Position numbers and translations under genes: made by a program. The notes beneath the pieces are model-generated. The model had not been told where the DNA came from and ran no database searches. It saw only the letters and a list, made by a program, of their open reading frames with translations. Positions 673 through 15,071 of a stretch of DNA of 64,000 nt are shown here, piece after piece (position 1 is the stretch's first letter; each line of letters opens with the position of its first letter). Source of the stretch: Escherichia coli (GTDB taxonomy: Bacteria > Pseudomonadota > Gammaproteobacteria > Enterobacterales > Enterobacteriaceae); NCBI RefSeq assembly GCF_013122565.1, contig NZ_CP053258.1. One strand, given 5' to 3'.

Positions 673-1974
673 TCAGGCAGAGGTAAATTGCGGGATGTTA
701 TGCCATAACGGCCAGCTAAACGAGAAGCGGGCACCACCCAGTTCGCTGGTGTCACAATTAACCGTACCGCCCATTGCCAGTGCTATAGAGTGGACAATTG
801 CCAGCCCCAGCCCGCAGCCGCCGGTTGAGCGATCCCGGCTGGGATCGAGGCGAACAAAAGGTTCAAAGATATGTTCGCGGTTTTCTGGGGCAATCCCTGG
901 GCCATCATCCTCAACAATTAATGTCGCTCTATTCCCCGACAGTAGCAGGCTGGTTTCAACCGTTGAATGGCAGTACCGCAGGGCGTTATTGAGCAAATTA
1001 TCCAGCACGCGCTCCATTAAGCGCATATCCAACGCCGCATAATGGCCTTGCACGAGCGTTTTTATCCGTACCGTTTTATCGGGCGTTACTGCCTGAATAT
1101 CTGCTAGATGCGTTGACAGCCACAACGGCAGGTCTGGTTCGCTAAGATGAAGCTCGTTTTGTGGGCGATCGAGTCGGGCATAAGTCAGCAGCTCTTCAAT
1201 TAAAGCTTCAAGTTGACTGATATCACGATTCAACGCCTGGGATTCGGCGGCGCTCAGGTTATCGCTCATCTCCAGTCGATAACGCAGGCGCACTAACGGT
1301 GTTCGCAGTTCGTGAGCGATACCGTCAATAAGCTGTTTTTTGCTGGCAATTAAGGCGTTGATATTGTCCGCCATCTGGTTAAATGCGACGCCAAGTCGTT
1401 CAAAGCTCGAACCCTCATCAAAGTGGATACGTTCATTGAGATGCCCATCGCCAAATCGTTGCGCCGCTGCTTCCAGTTTTAACATATCCTGCCAGTGCGG
1501 ACGCATCCAGATAAACACCGGAAAGGCGAGGGAAATAGCAATAAAAGCGATCAGGGCGATATCCAGCAATCGCATCTGATGGAGATAATAAAGATAAGGA
1601 ACAGGACCAACTGCCAGCACGTAGTGGCTGCGCGGGATACGCTGCAAAAACGTGTACTGATCGTCCAGGGCGACAATTTCGCCGCCACGCAGTCGGTGCA
1701 TGGAAATATCATCAAGATGGTATTTACTCAGTGGCTCGACACGCAGATCGAAAGAGAGATTTAAATCCATCTCTTTCAGAGTCTTACCCCAGTCGTGTGG
1801 GGGGATCTCACGCAATTCGCTGCGCATCAGATACAGCGAACTGTTCATCAAATCATCCAGCGACTGTTTGCCCGCGCGTTCGGCGGTAAATTTGTACACC
1901 AGCCCAACCAGCAGAGACATCACAAGGAAGCAGACAAACAATAACAGGTAAAACTGGATAAACAGTTTTTTCAT
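673..1974 (-). CDS. rstB: Sensor histidine kinase RstB
   Basis: 433 aa ORF with two N-terminal TM segments, HAMP, H-box (HELRTPL) and HATPase motifs; adjacent to rstA. Confidence 0.9.
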   Translation of the reverse strand: MKKLFIQFYLLLFVCFLVMSLLVGLVYKFTAERAGKQSLDDLMNSSLYLMRSELREIPPHDWGKTLKEMDLNLSFDLRVEPLSKYHLDDISMHRLRGGEIVALDDQYTFLQRIPRSHYVLAVGPVPYLYYLHQMRLLDIALIAFIAISLAFPVFIWMRPHWQDMLKLEAAAQRFGDGHLNERIHFDEGSSFERLGVAFNQMADNINALIASKKQLIDGIAHELRTPLVRLRYRLEMSDNLSAAESQALNRDISQLEALIEELLTYARLDRPQNELHLSEPDLPLWLSTHLADIQAVTPDKTVRIKTLVQGHYAALDMRLMERVLDNLLNNALRYCHSTVETSLLLSGNRATLIVEDDGPGIAPENREHIFEPFVRLDPSRDRSTGGCGLGLAIVHSIALAMGGTVNCDTSELGGARFSFSWPLWHNIPQFTSA

Positions 1975-1977
1975 CGC

Positions 1978-2697
1978 TTATTCCCATGCATGGGGCGCAA
2001 AAAGATAGCCTTTGTTACGCACAGTTTTAATGCGATAAGGTTCTGCGGCGTTATCGAGCAGTTTTTTTCTTAACCGCGAAATAGCCACGTCCACGCTACG
2101 ATCCAGTCCGTCATAACTGACGCCGCGTAAATTTTTCAGCAATGCATCGCGGTCCATGATTTGCCCAGCATGGGTAGCTAATTCCCACAATAATTCGAAA
2201 TCAGCTGTCGAGAGCGAGATTTCAGTGTTAGCCAGGGTGACTACGCGGTTGATGGGATCGATGGTCAACGTGCCGAAATGCAGGGCTTTGTAGGGAGTCA
2301 GAGACGTTTCCTGAAGACCTTTGGTCAGTGTGGCTTGCTCATTCTGACGCAAATGCAAACGTAAACGCGCTAGCAAAACAGCAGGGGGCGTCGTTTTGAG
2401 AATATAGTCGCAGGCACCCATTTCCAGTGCCAGGATGTGGTTCATATCGCTATCGAGAGAGGTTAGAAGAACAATCGGTCCAGACCACTTTGCGCGTAAA
2501 TCACGACAAATGGTCATGCCGTCCTTGCCTGGTAGCATGATGTCGAGTAACACCAAATCCGGATTTTCTCGCAAAATGGTTTCTTCGGCCTGGTCGCCGC
2601 GCGGCTCTACGGTAACCTGCATATCATGTTTTGCCAGGTACGCGGCAATCAGTGAACCGACTTCCGCATCATCTTCCACAAATACGATAGTGTTCAT
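1978..2697 (-). CDS. rstA: OmpR-family response regulator RstA
   Basis: ORF track 1978..2757; likely true start MNTIVFVEDD (ATG at 2695-2697) giving 239 aa; receiver domain plus winged-helix domain. Confidence 0.9.
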   Translation of the reverse strand: MNTIVFVEDDAEVGSLIAAYLAKHDMQVTVEPRGDQAEETILRENPDLVLLDIMLPGKDGMTICRDLRAKWSGPIVLLTSLDSDMNHILALEMGACDYILKTTPPAVLLARLRLHLRQNEQATLTKGLQETSLTPYKALHFGTLTIDPINRVVTLANTEISLSTADFELLWELATHAGQIMDRDALLKNLRGVSYDGLDRSVDVAISRLRKKLLDNAAEPYRIKTVRNKGYLFAPHAWE

Positions 2698-3161: not shown

Positions 3162-3880
3162 CGCAGATGACGACCGCCATCAAGTGGGAAACTGCGTCCG
3201 GTGACAAAGCAACTGGTAAGTAAGTAATCGACCAGGTCGATCACTTCTTTCTCGCCAGGCGCGGTTTTCATCAGTGATTTATTCAGCGCCTGTTGTCGAT
3301 ATTCGGCATCATCATGTTCATTAAACAGGATCAGCGATGGCGCAATAGAATTCACTTTCACTTCCGGTGCCAGCTTGCGGGCAAACGAGCGGGTCATATT
3401 ATCCAGTGCCGCTTTGCTTGCAGCATACGCAATATGTTTGTCGCTACCGCGCTCCACCACATAATCGGTAAAGTGAATGATATCGCTGGCGGCGTGTCCG
3501 TGCCCACGCAGTAATCTTTCCAGCGCATGGTTGAGCAGGTATGGGGTATTAACGTGGATCTGCATCATGCAAGCCAGTACGTCGGCCAGTGGCGCACCCG
3601 GTTTTTCCGCCATCCACGCACTGGCGTTATGCAAAATAGCACGCAGACCATGGGTGCTTTTTAGTACTTCGTCGGCAAACGCCATCACACCGTCGTTGGT
3701 CGAAAAATCAGCCTGAATACACTGCGCACCTGCATTAATCAGTCCATCAATGGCTGGATAGTGCGTCCGATAGCTGACAATCACCGGTTGCTTTTGATTA
3801 ATGAAATGCCATGCGAGGGCGAGGCCGATGCGACGACCACCGCCAGTAATTAATATTGGCAAGGGCTGGGCTTTACCCAT
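3158..3880 (-). CDS. folM: Dihydromonapterin/dihydrofolate reductase FolM (SDR family)
   Basis: 240 aa ORF with N-terminal ITGGGRRIG Rossmann motif and YAASKAAL SDR active site. Confidence 0.85.
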   Translation of the reverse strand: MGKAQPLPILITGGGRRIGLALAWHFINQKQPVIVSYRTHYPAIDGLINAGAQCIQADFSTNDGVMAFADEVLKSTHGLRAILHNASAWMAEKPGAPLADVLACMMQIHVNTPYLLNHALERLLRGHGHAASDIIHFTDYVVERGSDKHIAYAASKAALDNMTRSFARKLAPEVKVNSIAPSLILFNEHDDAEYRQQALNKSLMKTAPGEKEVIDLVDYLLTSCFVTGRSFPLDGGRHLR

Positions 3881-3916
3881 CGTTATCTCCTTTGCTATCC
3901 AACGATGGGATGAACG

Positions 3917-5299
3917 TTATCCCACCAGCATCCAGGTCGCCGGAACTGAGGCAATTAACAGCATGCCAATCAGCACCATTTCCTGACGGTTCAGTACATT
4001 ATCATGGGTATGCGTTTTACGCGCGTACAGGAAAACCAGCAGCCCCGGTGCATACAGAACAACGGATAACAGCAAGTGCATTGGACCAGAGGCGTACAAT
4101 AACCATAAGCCATAAATGCAGGCACCGACACCTACCGCTTTATGCAGTGGACGGGTTGCGATTTTCAGCAAGAACGCGCCGACCAGGAAATAGGGCACCA
4201 GAATCATTTCTGAGGCGATGGTCAGCAACGTGTTGTAATCGGAACCGGTCAGCCAGATGAGTACCAGACAAATTTGCACGCAGATGTTAGTCAACCACAG
4301 TGAGGCGGATGGCGCAGCTTGTGCGTTCTGGCGCGCAAAAATGCGCGGGAATGCTTTATGAGTGGCGGCCAGGAACGGAACTTCTGCCGCCATGATGGTC
4401 CAGCTTAAGTACGCGCCGCAAACGGAAACGATCAAACCGGCAGCGATGATGATTTCGCCCCACGGTCCCATCATTTCCACCATCAGACCGGCCATTGACG
4501 GGTTACGAATTTCAGCCAGTTCAGGACGTGCCACCACACCCAGCGAAAGCAGCGTTACCAGCAAGTAAACGCCCAGAGCGGAGAGAACCGCCAGCAGTGT
4601 CGCTTTGCCAACATCACGTTTATTACGCGCACGCGCAGAAACAACCACGGCACCTTCCACACCAATGAAAACCCACAGGGTGATCAGCATGGTGTTTTTC
4701 ACCTGTTCCCACACGGGGACGCCAAGTGCAAGTCCGGTGAAGTCGAGCTTGAAGGTATCCAGTTTGAACATCATCATAGCCAGCACAACAAACAGACCCA
4801 GCGGCAACAATTTTGCCAGTGTCGCCACCAGGTTAATGCTGGCAGCGGTTTGCACCCCGCGCAGGATCAAAAAGTGAACAATCCACAATAAAGCCGATGC
4901 ACCGACGATCGATTGCCAGGTATTACCATCGCCAAACAGGCGCAATTCCGGCGTGTCCGTAAAAAAGCTTAACGCGGAAAAAACGATTACCAGATAGGAG
5001 ACGTTGGCGATGACTGCGCACAGCCAGTATCCCCATGCGGAACAAAAGCCGATTAGCTCGCCAAACCCTTCGCGGGCATAGGTAAAGATACCGCCGTCAA
5101 GTTCGGGACGAATGCGCGTGAGGATCAGCATGGCAAAGGCCAGTAATAAAATACCAGCGCCAGTGATACCCCAGCCGATGAGCAGTGCTGCCGGGCTGGC
5201 AACTGCCGCCATATTTTGCGGCAGACTGAAAACACCCGCGCCCAGCATTGAGCTTAATACCAGCGCGGTGAGTGCGCTCAGTCCCAGTTTCTTTTCCAT
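3917..5299 (-). CDS. ydgI: Putative arginine/ornithine antiporter (ArcD-like, APC family)
   Basis: 460 aa polytopic membrane ORF; recalled match to E. coli YdgI. Confidence 0.85.
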   Translation of the reverse strand: MEKKLGLSALTALVLSSMLGAGVFSLPQNMAAVASPAALLIGWGITGAGILLLAFAMLILTRIRPELDGGIFTYAREGFGELIGFCSAWGYWLCAVIANVSYLVIVFSALSFFTDTPELRLFGDGNTWQSIVGASALLWIVHFLILRGVQTAASINLVATLAKLLPLGLFVVLAMMMFKLDTFKLDFTGLALGVPVWEQVKNTMLITLWVFIGVEGAVVVSARARNKRDVGKATLLAVLSALGVYLLVTLLSLGVVARPELAEIRNPSMAGLMVEMMGPWGEIIIAAGLIVSVCGAYLSWTIMAAEVPFLAATHKAFPRIFARQNAQAAPSASLWLTNICVQICLVLIWLTGSDYNTLLTIASEMILVPYFLVGAFLLKIATRPLHKAVGVGACIYGLWLLYASGPMHLLLSVVLYAPGLLVFLYARKTHTHDNVLNRQEMVLIGMLLIASVPATWMLVG

Positions 5300-9888: not shown

Positions 9889-9920
9889 GACGGCCTCTGC
9901 GGAGGCCGTCACTCTTTATT
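9889..9920. terminator. Stem-loop between convergent pntB and tqsA (possible bidirectional terminator)
   Basis: GACGGCCTC-TGCG-GAGGCCGTC perfect 9 bp stem followed by T-rich tract. Confidence 0.5.
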
Positions 9921-10857
9921 GAGATCGCTTAACAGAACGGCGATGCTTTGACCTCCCGCTGTTTGTTCAAGCGCAATTTTGACAATAATTGTTAACGGCA
10001 CGGAAAGCAGCATACCCACCGGTCCTAACAACCATCCCCAAAAAATCAACGACAAAAATACCACCAATGTGGAAAGTCCCAGCCCACGCCCCATGATGCG
10101 TGGCTCCAGAATATTGCCGAAGACCAGATTAATCAGCAGATATCCCGCCAGCACCAACAACGCTTCGTAGAAGCCATTAAACACCAGTACCTGAGCGATA
10201 ATCGAGGGCGGCGAGCATCGCCCATGCGACCAGGCCGGTGATGATGCTGATGGCTGTTTTCAGCACCAGATAATGAGACACACTGTCAATCGCACGCTGA
10301 ATCGCCGCCATCCCTTCAACCGGACGCGCCATCATTTGCTGAAATTTTCCGGGCAATTGTGGCACTTCGAGCAGCATAAACAGCACCGTCAGCAGCAATA
10401 AAAATATTGATGACATGGCATTAGATAACTGCGTCAATAAGTTGGTGAGCAACGTCATCGCCGCGTTCGGATCAATGTAATGCGCCAGTTGGTCAACTGA
10501 GACGTCAATCCCTACGCGTTGCAACAACGGCTCAAGAGCTTGCAGCGGCGTCATAATAGAGTTGCGATATTGCGGTAACGTCCGCGTCAACTCGTTGAGC
10601 GCGGAACCCAGATAAGCTAACAGCAACACCATAGCCATCACGATGATGGTCATCAAAATCGACACCGCCAGTACACGCGGCACTCGCCAGCGGACCATGT
10701 GTTGCACCAGCGGGTTAAGAATAACAGCAATAAATAATGCGAGAATAAACGGCACGATGATCTCGGCGGCAAAACGGATACCGCAGAGAATAATGACCAG
10801 CATTCCCAACATAATGACGATTTTTAGGCCATTGAGCGTGATGATCGGCTTTGCCAT
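9909..10857 (-). pseudogene. tqsA: AI-2 exporter TqsA (AI-2E/PerM family) interrupted by frameshift or internal deletion
   Basis: Two collinear same-strand ORFs (10177..10857, 226 aa, and 9909..10184, 91 aa) correspond to N- and C-terminal parts of one transporter; frames switch near 10180-10215. Confidence 0.7.
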
Positions 10858-11268
10858 GCTTGTCCCCGTTTTTTCTTCCTTGGCTAATAATAATGTCTTT
10901 TTCGCTCCGTCATCATAACGAAAATCAAACCGCTCAGGTAAAGAAGTGAAAATATTTTGAGTTAATTCTTAAGCTATGATACAAATCAGGCGTGTTCAAC
11001 TACCGAGGACAATTATCATCCGCGATGACGAGAAGCAACACTGCGGATAATTGTAATATTATGGACAATTTGTTCAGGACGTTATTTTCTACATTTACCC
11101 ATCTTCGTACCTCATCCACTATCTTGCTCGTAGGTGAGCAGCACTGGCGCAACGCGCTTTAGTCCTTTCTTCTGCCAAAGCTTGCGCTAAGCGCGGGGCT
11201 TGACCACTTTACTTTGGTTTCGCTGAATTAAGCGAAAATTAAAATAATTCTCTTGCAGGAGAAGGACA

Positions 11269-11634
11269 ATGTATATTTATTGGATTTTATTAGGTCTGGC
11301 TATTGCTACAGAAATTACCGGTACGCTGTCCATGAAATGGGCGAGCGTCAGTGAGGGAAATGGCGGCTTTATTTTAATGCTGGTGATGATTTCTCTGTCG
11401 TATATATTTCTCTCTTTCGCCGTTAAAAAAATCGCCTTAGGCGTAGCTTATGCGCTGTGGGAAGGTATCGGTATTTTATTTATTACCTTGTTTAGCGTTT
11501 TGTTATTCGACGAAAGTTTATCGCTGATGAAAATTGCCGGGTTAACCACCCTGGTCGCCGGGATTGTGTTGATAAAATCAGGTACCCGTAAAGCGCGTAA
11601 ACCTGAACTGGAGGTGAACCATGGCGCAGTTTGA
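11269..11634 (+). CDS. mdtJ: Spermidine export protein MdtJ (SMR family)
   Basis: 121 aa four-TM ORF; overlaps mdtI start. Confidence 0.9.
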
Positions 11635-11950
11635 ATGGGTTCACGCCGCCTGGCTGGCATTGGCAATCGTGCTGGAAATCGTTGCTAACGTCTTTTTGAA
11701 ATTTTCTGACGGCTTTCGTCGCAAAATATTTGGCTTGCTCTCCCTGGCGGCGGTGCTGGCTGCCTTTAGTGCGCTTTCTCAGGCCGTTAAAGGGATCGAC
11801 TTGTCTGTCGCTTATGCATTGTGGGGCGGGTTTGGTATTGCCGCCACGTTAGCCGCAGGTTGGATCTTGTTTGGTCAACGGTTAAATCGTAAAGGCTGGA
11901 TTGGCCTGATCTTGCTGTTGGCTGGAATGATCATGGTGAAACTTGCCTGA
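11621..11950 (+). CDS. mdtI: Spermidine export protein MdtI (SMR family)
   Basis: 109 aa ORF overlapping mdtJ 3' end, consistent with translational coupling. Confidence 0.9.
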
Positions 11951-11988
11951 TGAACACGCTGCCCGCGCTGTCGGGCAGCGTTTGAACA

Positions 11989-12810
11989 TTATTTTTGCGA
12001 CAGTTGATCCAGCCTGTCGCGAAAACCGGTAACAGAAATGGCCCGGTTATCGGCGCGCCAGCGATCTTTCGCGGCAGGAGCCGAACTTTGCACCCCAATT
12101 AATTGCCAGCCGTCATCGGTATGCAACATCAGAGGCGAACCGCTGTCACCCGGCAAGGTATCGCACTGATGTGACATCACCGACGTTTGCGCCCAGCCAG
12201 TCACTTCACAGTTTTGATGACTGTACAACGTATCGAGATGATCTTCAGGGTATCCCGCCTGAGTTACTTTACGGCCAGCCGATTTTAATGCGGCGGTAAG
12301 CGCGGCTTTATCTCCCTCAAATAACGGCAACGGTGTAATGCCAGAAGGGGGATTACGTAGCACAATCAATCCGAAGTCCCACGGTGCAGCTGCGGGAGGT
12401 ACAATCCAACCATCCCCATCTGCTTTTAACCGCTTTCCCAGTGTCGGATCAACGCGGCCTTCTATGTCGTGGATCTCATAGCGCCAAAGACCTTTATTTG
12501 ACACAAAACGCAGCGCTACCGCCTTATCCGCTTTACCCTTTGGAGGTGTCAATAAACAGTGTCCTGCCGTTAATGCCAGATTGGGTGCAATCAGCGTCGC
12601 CGTACATAAATTGCCGCTGGCCGTTTCCAGTTGCCCAACCGCATCCCACGGTGATTGGGTCGTGTCATTCACTGGCACACGATCATCATGACCAAAAAAC
12701 AGGGTGCTGATCTCATCGTTTGCCGATTTGGCAACGTCTGGTTTATCTGCAAACACAAAAGCAGACGTCAAACTAATTGCACCCAACACTACAGCAATGG
12801 TTGTACGCAT
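11989..12810 (-). CDS. ydgD: Secreted trypsin-like serine peptidase (S1 family)
   Basis: 273 aa ORF with signal peptide, TAGHC histidine motif and GDSGSP serine motif. Confidence 0.8.
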
Positions 12811-12909
12811 ATCACACTCTGGTGGGTAATTATGATTATTAAAAGCAAACCCTCATAAATACTATAGACGGGACGGGATGAAAGTGGGAGTAAAATCAGA
12901 TAACTACGA

Positions 12910-12993
12910 TCAGGAAAGATAAAAACGGGCGGCAATCAGTGCGCATAAAATAAGGATGATAAGAATGAACTCAAAGCGATAACGGCCCACCAT
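12910..12993 (-). CDS. ydgU: Small hydrophobic protein YdgU (27 aa)
   Basis: Manual translation MVGRYRFEFILIILILCALIAARFYLS; too short for ORF track. Confidence 0.6.
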   Translation of the reverse strand: MVGRYRFEFILIILILCALIAARFYLS

Positions 12994-13085
12994 ACTACCC
13001 TCCGCTAAAGGCGGTGCTAAACGTTACCCGCTTAGCACCGTAATTTTCAGGCGCGAGGGGGCGCGCCAGCATTACTGTTGAAAAC

Positions 13086-13394
13086 TTACGCTGCGGGTTG
13101 TGCAGCAGGTTTTGCCGGTTGCTGATGGCTGTGTTTCCCGGCGTGTTTCTTCGCTGCCTGCGCTTTTTGTTCAGGGGCTTTCTGTTCAGCTTTCGTATTT
13201 TTATGATGCTTTTTAGCCGCCTGCGCTTTCTGGGCAGGTGCTGCTTTATGCTGTTTTTTATGATGTGTAGTTTTCGCCGGCGCTGCTTTGGTGGTCGTCG
13301 CAGTCGGAGCAGGTGTGGTCGCAGTCTCTGCAGCAAAGGCGGCAGAAGACAGACCCATAGCAGCGGCAACAACCAGAGCTAATACTTTTTTCAT
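13086..13394 (-). CDS. asr: Acid shock protein Asr
   Basis: ORF track 13086..13421; canonical start [14 protein letters not shown] (signal peptide); lysine/alanine/histidine-rich repetitive periplasmic protein. Confidence 0.85.
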
Positions 13395-13817
13395 TGTCAT
13401 ACCCTCAATTTGTTTTTTCATTTAACCCCACTGCGGGGCCGTTGAAATAACTATATCCCTGGGAATGGTAGACTTCCGTGAGTGGTTGGTTTCAGCGTGT
13501 AACGATATGTACAAACGCTGAATAAATTACAGCATTGATAATAACGTATTGTGACTTAAGGAAAATTTAGCTACCAATAATAGTAGTCTTGATCGGGTTA
13601 ACTATTTTACTACTTACAAAGCGGTAGAATAACTGCGCATCAGTAATAAATGACACACAGCAAAATGAATCCGTTTATTTGGGTACTTATAATCTTGATG
13701 ACGCTAGATGCGCTGCGGGAATTGGCTGGCGCTTCGTCTATTTTAGGATGGCTATTAACGTTGGTTTGAGCAGGCAATAAGTCCGGATGGGTATTTACCG
13801 CAGTCCGGACTTATTTT

Positions 13818-15071
13818 TCAGGCGTGCAGACGACGATGCAAACGCGTCCCGACCAGCAGAGCAATGACCAGCATCAGAGCAATAAATGCGCCGACGCCGT
13901 TCCAGCCATAGTTATGCCAGAAAACACCCCCCAGCGTCCCGGCAATACTCGACCCCAGATAGTAACTGAACAGATACAGCGAGGAGGCCTGGCCTTTAGC
14001 GCGTTTTGCGCGGGGGCCGATCCAGCTGCTGGCAACGGAGTGGGCTGCGAAGAATCCGGCTGAGAAGAGTAACATTCCGGCAAAGATCAGCCACAGCGAG
14101 CTAAATAAGGTCATCAGTAAACCAAACAGCATAACTCCCGTCGAAAACAACATCACCGGACCGCGCCCATAGCGGGTGGTCATGGTTCCGGCTTTGGGTG
14201 AGCTCCATGTACCGGTCAAATAAGCCAGCGATAATAAGCCAACCACGGCCTGACTGACATGCCAGGGGGAAAGCATCAACCGATAGCCGATGTAATTAAA
14301 CAGCGTGACGAACGACCCCATCAGCAAAAAGCCTTCTGCGAACAATAACGGTAATCCCCGGTCACGCCAGTGCAGACGAAAGTTGATAAATAACGTCTTA
14401 GGGCGCAGCGAAGTCGGGCGAAAATGGCGTGATTCAGGGAGGATTTTCCAGAACATCAACGCCGAGGCCAGCGCGAAACAACCGATTGCCGCCAGAGCAA
14501 TTCGCCAGTTGAAAAAGTCCGTGAAGACACCGCTAATTAAGCGTCCGCTCATACCGCCAATTGAGTTGCCGCTGATATACAACCCCATTGAAAAGGCCAC
14601 GAAACTGGGATGGATTTCCTCGCTAAGATAAGTCATGCCAACAGCTGCCACGCCACTTAACGAAAGCCCAATCAAGGCGCGCATAATCAAAATGCCGTGC
14701 CAGCTGGTCATCATTGTCGAAAGTAACGTACAAATGGAGGCCAACAGTAGCGCCGTGACCATCACTGGTTTGCGACCAATGGCATCGGATAGGGGGCCAG
14801 TAAACAGCAAACCAATAGCCAACATCGCCGTGGAAATGGACAGTGAAATACTACTGTTCGCGGGCGTTAAGCCAAACTCCTGCGAAAGCACCGGAAGGAT
14901 AGGCTGCACACAATAGAGAAGTGCAAATGTTGCCAGTCCGGCAGAGAACAGCGCCAGGGTGACGCGCATAAATTGCGGCGTACCGCGTTTAATAAATTGA
15001 TTTGGCAGAGAAATGCTTTGCTTGTCAGTGTCGCTTGCCGGAGCGCCATCAACAGTTGTAGTACGGCTCAC
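13818..15071 (-). CDS. ynfM: MFS transporter YnfM
   Basis: 417 aa 12-TM ORF. Confidence 0.85.
   Translation of the reverse strand: MSRTTTVDGAPASDTDKQSISLPNQFIKRGTPQFMRVTLALFSAGLATFALLYCVQPILPVLSQEFGLTPANSSISLSISTAMLAIGLLFTGPLSDAIGRKPVMVTALLLASICTLLSTMMTSWHGILIMRALIGLSLSGVAAVGMTYLSEEIHPSFVAFSMGLYISGNSIGGMSGRLISGVFTDFFNWRIALAAIGCFALASALMFWKILPESRHFRPTSLRPKTLFINFRLHWRDRGLPLLFAEGFLLMGSFVTLFNYIGYRLMLSPWHVSQAVVGLLSLAYLTGTWSSPKAGTMTTRYGRGPVMLFSTGVMLFGLLMTLFSSLWLIFAGMLLFSAGFFAAHSVASSWIGPRAKRAKGQASSLYLFSYYLGSSIAGTLGGVFWHNYGWNGVGAFIALMLVIALLVGTRLHRRLHA

Follow-up and report, generated by a model that had tools for sequence, protein, structure and literature searches.

The small membrane protein gene ydgU (samT) between asr and ydgD in Escherichia coli, and its probable role in RstB-RstA feedback

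The gap of 275 nt between the stop of the acid-shock gene asr (13086) and the start of the peptidase gene ydgD (12810) contains a very short ORF on the same strand as both genes. The question raised by this locus is whether such an ORF is a gene and, if so, what its product does in the cell. All positions are given in the 64-kb stretch of E. coli DNA that was analyzed, referred to as the window. The most probable answer, held at a probability of about 0.85, is that the ORF is ydgU, now called samT, and that it encodes an RstA-driven membrane peptide that binds the sensor kinase RstB and damps RstB-RstA signalling. The ORF, its conservation, its Shine-Dalgarno sequence, the RstA box, a hairpin and the membrane-helix character of the peptide come from the present analysis, while translation, membrane localization, the operon, RstB binding and feedback were established in the literature for the K-12 allele.

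Identity and coding status of the 27-codon ORF

The initial annotation had described a 27-codon ORF on the minus strand at 12910..12993 and had named it ydgU, lying between ydgD and asr. The ORF listing gave identical coordinates and the same peptide, MVGRYRFEFILIILILCALIAARFYLS (27 aa, ATG start, TGA stop), and both name and position agreed with the RefSeq entry 'small membrane protein YdgU'. The order of the three genes, all on the minus strand, was also that of RefSeq. The features of this region are:

12910..12993, minus strand: ydgU (samT) coding sequence, 27 codons plus TGA (ORF listing, RefSeq CDS, NCBIfam NF052476, conserved frame, pN/pS)
12998..13003, minus strand: Shine-Dalgarno sequence of ydgU, GGAGGG, 4 nt 5' of the ATG, read from the sequence
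13086..13394, minus strand: asr, acid-shock periplasmic protein, promoter-proximal gene of the asr-ydgU operon (99.2 bits to NCBIfam NF033636, cutoff 50; RefSeq)
11989..12810, minus strand: ydgD, encoding a trypsin-like serine peptidase and conserved as the downstream neighbour of ydgU (ORF listing, RefSeq, survey)

A bare ORF of 27 codons proves nothing, because the ORF listing contained dozens of ORFs of 20-30 codons, a size that arises by chance, in the 4.5 kb around ydgU. What sets ydgU apart from these is the combination of a Shine-Dalgarno sequence, an NCBIfam equivalog, a RefSeq CDS and purifying selection. The peptide matched the NCBIfam equivalog NF052476 (small_YdgU) at 70.3 bits against a cutoff of 24, with residues 1-27 on model positions 1-27, and NF011341 (PRK14758) over its full length at 74.5 bits against a cutoff of 66. 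There was no Pfam family for the peptide, and a search of 11500..14500 against Rfam at E ≤ 1 gave no match. The ORF is the known gene ydgU, since renamed samT, and its product is a full member of the YdgU/SamT family. A RefSeq CDS was present at these coordinates under product names that varied by record ('small membrane protein YdgU', 'stationary phase-induced protein' or 'hypothetical protein').

The gene is already known: it was reportedly first identified in the 2008 screen of Hemm et al., RefSeq annotates it, ribosome profiling has detected it, and a functional characterization followed in 2026. The small membrane proteins of that screen are said to be shorter than 50 aa, to consist of one hydrophobic helix and to fall below ORF cutoffs, and they were reportedly found by conservation and ribosome-binding-site models; the others among them belong to different families and have different partners from YdgU. 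The gene illustrates well how length cutoffs in ORF calling routinely overlook small membrane peptides that modulate sensor kinases.

The window carries the same gene as E. coli K-12 (b4601), at the same position and of the same length, with 26 of 27 residues identical; the Shine-Dalgarno sequence, the hairpins and the spacer were identical in DNA. The allele differed from that of K-12 by A21 in place of T21 and by one synonymous Leu codon change, and of the 57 distinct YdgU peptides across genera, 40 had A and 17 had T at position 21. A 301-nt query around ydgU had a match in 5422 of the 5426 complete E. coli genomes searched, at an identity of at least 99% in 5228 of them. In one strain, ESBL_DR28 (NZ_CP067250.1), an IS2 element at 3164..4600 of the retrieved locus interrupts ydgU; the alignment is broken at base 163 of the query (window 12938, at about codon 19), making this strain a natural ydgU knock-out.

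Conservation was surveyed in 80 loci/species of the Enterobacteriaceae and Erwiniaceae, including Escherichia, Citrobacter, Kosakonia, Kluyvera, Buttiauxella, Cedecea, Erwinia, Pantoea and Mixta. The survey was anchored by synteny on YdgD and not on ydgU, so that the sample was independent of ydgU conservation. Of the 80 loci, 78 had a ydgU-like ORF that preceded ydgD and shared its strand. The distance between the two was typically about 100-120 nt (97-130 nt in most of the 78), and in 75 of the 78 the order asr-ydgU-ydgD was found on one strand. The length of the ORF was 26 codons at 55 loci, 27 codons at 22 and 29 codons at a single locus, so that 77 of 78 were of 26-27 codons. The aligned start was ATG in 75 of 78 loci, and a GGAG core preceded it in nearly all 78 and was invariant in alignment A2. 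The stop fell at one shared position, though TAA (35 loci), TGA (31) and TAG (12) were all used.

The pattern of variation among the 73 distinct ydgU sequences was that of a coding sequence. Column entropy at codon positions 1, 2 and 3 was 0.84, 0.34 and 1.32 (variability 3 > 1 > 2), pN/pS was 0.34 in the ydgU frame against 1.02 and 1.82 in the shifted frames, and this frame was open in all 73 sequences, compared with 0-37 for the other five frames. The entropy of the ORF was 0.83, and that of its flanks 1.5-1.8. Two residues, E8 and C17, were invariant, and R4, Y5, F7, L11, I15 and F24 were nearly so. Frame conservation and ribosome occupancy were the two checks proposed along with the initial annotation, and both came out in favor of a gene: the frame is kept far beyond close relatives, and published Ribo-seq shows strong occupancy of ydgU at pH 4.4, where it ranked in the top three genes for induction (log2FC 9.22 in footprints, 12.39 in RNA; PMC10746267). 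Thus ydgU is a protein-coding gene under purifying selection. Its family spans the Enterobacteriaceae and Erwiniaceae, and the invariant E8 and C17 are obvious mutagenesis targets for the interface with RstB.

The membrane peptide and the RstB-RstA system

Residues 9-26 of YdgU were strongly hydrophobic (mean Kyte-Doolittle value 2.73), and in the homologs R/K was 2.4 at the N-terminus versus 0.17 at the C-terminus. A GFP-YdgU fusion was found at the cell periphery (PMC11429745), so the earlier description of the product as a small membrane protein with a single transmembrane helix holds. These features fit a single-pass inner-membrane helix with its N-terminus inside and essentially no periplasmic tail. 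A test for conservation on one helical face gave permutation p values of about 0.04-0.13, which shifted with the residue range chosen.

The genes for the two-component system with which this peptide has been connected lie inside the same window as ydgU, and a predicted binding site for the response regulator was found upstream of asr:

13498..13511, minus strand: RstA box TACATATCGTTACA, an exact consensus match about 104 nt upstream of the asr ATG
673..1974, minus strand: rstB, sensor kinase reportedly bound by YdgU/SamT (833 bits to NCBIfam NF007898, cutoff 478)
1978..2697, minus strand: rstA, response regulator activating the asr-ydgU promoter (485 bits to NCBIfam NF007977, cutoff 330)

The consensus for the RstA box is TACATNTNGTTACA (PMC4117788). 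Allowing two or fewer mismatches on the coding strand, the box was found in 76 of the 78 homologous loci, compared with 0 of 78 and 1 of 78 control stretches, and its spacing to asr was constant, at about 118 nt. In published work asr and ydgU form an operon (PMC13425233, PMC11429745), which by northern blot is RstA-dependent and induced at pH 5 (PMC13425233). Low Mg2+ also induces ydgU in a PhoQ-PhoP-dependent manner via the asr promoter, and the DNA immediately 5' of ydgU had negligible promoter activity (PMC11429745). The predicted RstA box and the published RstA dependence both point to transcription of ydgU by the response regulator of the very system that YdgU would modulate.

The function of the peptide was described in a 2026 NAR paper in which ydgU was renamed samT (PMC13425233). 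At pH 5, samT expressed alone from another locus restored negative feedback on a Pasr reporter, and asr alone did not. This feedback was abolished in rstA D52A/D52E mutants and in rstB kinase-dead or null mutants. The two-hybrid signal of T18-SamT with T25-RstB was strong, comparable to that of MgrB with PhoQ, while SamT signals with PhoQ and EnvZ were weaker (PMC13425233). Published evidence for RstB binding and reduced signalling by SamT is thus two-hybrid data and genetic epistasis obtained with the K-12 allele. Support for the mechanism comes from this one study, with the direct interaction taken from bacterial two-hybrid assays of overproduced fusions alone, and the experiments used the T21 allele (PMC13425233), whereas the window encodes A21.

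These observations can be arranged into a four-step mechanism. In the first step, which is published, ydgU is transcribed from the RstA-activated asr promoter as the second gene of the operon. In the second, proposed in this analysis, polymerase would read through a terminator-like hairpin that abuts the ydgU Shine-Dalgarno sequence. In the third, also published, acid pH or low Mg2+ acts through PhoQ-PhoP to raise rstAB, and RstB-RstA then turns on asr-ydgU. In the last, again from published work, SamT would bind RstB in the membrane and lower phosphotransfer to RstA, a negative feedback like that of MgrB on PhoQ. Because YdgU has no periplasmic domain, the contact with RstB may lie in the membrane itself or in the cytoplasmic juxtamembrane region, where the conserved RRYxFE motif is the candidate.

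The parallel with MgrB was drawn by the SamT authors (PMC13425233). Like SamT, MgrB (47 aa) is a small single-pass inner-membrane peptide, and its PhoP-induced gene encodes an inhibitor of PhoQ, forming a negative feedback. MgrB has a functional periplasmic region with cysteines, whereas the YdgU chain stops with its helix and lacks a periplasmic domain. In addition, mgrB is monocistronic, while ydgU is instead found behind asr and a terminator-like hairpin. BLASTP of YdgU against a single MgrB sequence gave no alignment at E ≤ 100. On this sequence comparison, YdgU is a functional analogue of MgrB and not a member of a homologous family. A second comparison is with UgtS-UgtL of Salmonella, where, as in asr-samT, one operon encodes positive and negative modulators of the two-component system that controls it; UgtS antagonizes UgtL, whereas neither Asr nor SamT depends on the other for its action and the two work at different pH (PMC13425233).

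The spacer between asr and ydgU

The 92-nt spacer between asr and ydgU was predicted to form a stable fold (MFE, z = -2.66), in which two hairpins could be recognized:

13012..13040, minus strand: 12-bp terminator-like hairpin, CGGTGCTAAGCG-GGTAA-CGTTTAGCACCG (MFE fold of the spacer)
13050..13067, minus strand: upstream hairpin, GGCGCG-CCCCCT-CGCGCC, kept in Escherichia and Citrobacter only (spacer fold)

The 3' end of the 12-bp hairpin was 18 nt before the ydgU ATG, abutting the Shine-Dalgarno sequence, and in E. coli the hairpin was followed by a weak T-tract, CCTTTAG (13004..13011). A terminator scan did not call this hairpin, and the weakness of the T-tract accounts for the miss. In almost all lineages there was an equivalent GC-rich hairpin with a T-run, ending 16-22 nt before the ydgU ATG, and the stem sequences were clade-specific. 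In a 65-sequence alignment all ten base pairs showed changes on both sides, and pairing was kept in 95.1% of cells, compared with 78% in shuffled alignments (0 of 500 reached the observed value) and at most 45% when the partners were slid. The number of independent compensatory events is nevertheless small, since the changes were concentrated between a few clades. A strict count of hairpin plus T-run found 56 of 73 sequences with at least three T and 17 of 73 with at least five T; this is an undercount because A-T extensions of the stem absorb part of the T-run, and inspection of the folds indicated a hairpin in nearly all lineages.

The hairpin is a putative asr terminator in E. coli, one that polymerase would have to cross to reach ydgU. 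Together with the published lack of a promoter just 5' of ydgU, its presence suggests that ydgU is expressed by read-through of this terminator, which would set the ratio of Asr to SamT. The hairpin would then attenuate ydgU relative to asr. A terminator between asr and samT is not discussed in the main text of PMC13425233 or in the preprint text. How asr and samT come to be differentially expressed is a question raised by the SamT authors, and the conserved hairpin is a concrete candidate mechanism.

The upstream hairpin may add a second layer of control. In the MFE structure of the whole spacer, its CCCCCUC paired instead with the GGAGGG Shine-Dalgarno region of ydgU, and the C-rich loop may occlude this site, though any such role is speculative. 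It is possible, and we regard it as somewhat doubtful, that the spacer is a regulatory device and not a passive terminator, with read-through, and in Escherichia and Citrobacter perhaps also Shine-Dalgarno occlusion, setting the Asr:SamT ratio and hence the gain of RstB-RstA feedback. If this were true, Asr would be the positive arm and SamT the negative arm of that feedback. As no terminator follows ydgU, the same read-through may also bring the protease gene ydgD under the acid signal.

The ydgD neighbour, lineage exceptions and other small ORFs

The close and persistent association of ydgU with ydgD is the basis for an alternative reading, in which YdgU is real and its main partner is not RstB; it would act with the periplasmic protease YdgD or with other membrane proteins, and the effect on RstB would be secondary. 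In nearly all 78 loci YdgD itself, which had no NCBIfam match at E ≤ 1e-5, is encoded in the same orientation as ydgU, 97-130 nt downstream of it. A terminator-like hairpin was found in only 1 of 70 distinct ydgU-ydgD spacers, so that read-through into ydgD is possible; the E. coli spacer had no stable fold (z = +0.63). The translation efficiency of ydgD rises at pH 4.4 (log2 2.16, Table S4 of PMC10746267); this was the sole ydgD entry when evidence for co-induction was sought in the acid-stress supplement of that paper. The weaker two-hybrid signals of SamT with PhoQ and EnvZ would also fit a wider set of membrane partners, as would the finding that neither deletion nor overexpression of ydgU gave a growth phenotype under low Mg2+ (PMC11429745).

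Several observations stand against this reading and make it improbable. One is that samT alone restores feedback on Pasr and requires the RstB-RstA phosphorelay to do so (PMC13425233). In addition, the spacer contains a conserved block that suggests ydgD is transcribed on its own:

12861..12891, minus strand: conserved spacer block ACTCCC...CCGTCTATAGT, in full ACTCCCACTTTCATCCCGTCCCGTCTATAGT (MAFFT alignment of 69 distinct spacers)

This block was shared by all of the ydgU-ydgD spacers; most of its columns had an identity of at least 90%, and it was strongly conserved from Escherichia to Erwinia and Pantoea. It includes CTATAGT, which resembles a -10 element with an upstream C, and the block is probably the -10 region of a ydgD promoter. 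A scan with the sigma-70 consensus found no site in 12600..13600, a range that includes the block.

The exceptions to the common gene order also bear on the partner of YdgU. In two Mangrovibacter loci the order was asr, ydgU, asr, ydgD, and asr with its promoter region had been tandemly duplicated (1150..2270 of the loci). The ydgU gene followed the first asr copy only, and the second copy put about 750 nt between ydgU and ydgD, a separation that argues against a necessary coupling of the two. In two Franconibacter loci (about 2190..2400) asr was gone, and ydgU (25-26 aa) was found 111-128 nt 3' of a perfect RstA box; in other words, the box tracks ydgU even when asr is lost. Because Franconibacter keeps ydgU behind the RstA box without asr, the peptide would appear to be of value independently of Asr, and this natural experiment supports an asr-independent role for it. 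Losses were also seen. In Tenebrionibacter asr and ydgU had been deleted together, while in Intestinirhabdus alba (about 2290..2370 of the locus) ydgU was a decayed remnant with an early stop and without a start codon, despite the presence of asr, the T-run and a GGAGGGG Shine-Dalgarno sequence, indicating a lineage-specific loss.

The same position 5' of ydgD, with no intervening terminator, could instead mean that ydgU is a leader or upstream ORF whose translation, and not its peptide, controls ydgD, and the change in ydgD translation efficiency at pH 4.4 (PMC10746267) is what such control might produce. This is very unlikely, as a pure leader has no need of a selected amino acid sequence, and YdgU has one (pN/pS 0.34, invariant E8 and C17). 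The spacer of about 100 nt between the ydgU stop and ydgD, with its own promoter-like block, also speaks against translational control, as does the activity of the SamT peptide in trans from a different locus (PMC13425233). The remaining suggestion, that the ORF is spurious and its conservation that of a non-coding element (the asr 3'UTR with its terminator, or ydgD promoter DNA), could draw on the many chance ORFs nearby, the conserved hairpin and promoter-like block on either side and the missing Pfam family, but it was set aside as refuted for practical purposes by the coding evidence (three-base periodicity, pN/pS low in the ydgU frame only, a frame open throughout, a stop kept through all three stop codons and an entropy well below that of the flanks), by the lack of an Rfam match, and by the Ribo-seq signal (PMC10746267) and the detection of tagged protein (PMC11429745). 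The reading of YdgU as an RstA-driven peptide that would damp RstB is therefore preferred.

Other short ORFs were present in the window. A hydrophobic ORF of 39 aa (MTHSKMNPFIWVLIILMTLDALRELAGASSILGWLLTLV; 13650..13769, plus strand) occupies the ynfM-asr gap, running opposite to both genes, and scored 63.3 bits (cutoff 35) against NCBIfam NF033695, 'KPN_01571 family protein'. Its RefSeq annotation was inconsistent: some records gave it 120 nt, a K-12 record 72 nt. Judged by its predicted sequence, its product is another small membrane-type protein. Upstream of mdtJ, an ORF of 56 aa (10992..11162, plus strand) corresponded to the RefSeq CDS 'protein YdgV'.

One longer gene in the window was damaged. 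In the AI-2 transporter gene tqsA, at about 10194..10200, the window was without 86 nt relative to strain TUM13064. As this loss splits the gene into ORFs of 226 aa (10177..10857) and 91 aa (9909..10184), both on the minus strand, the source strain apparently carries tqsA as a frameshifted pseudogene.
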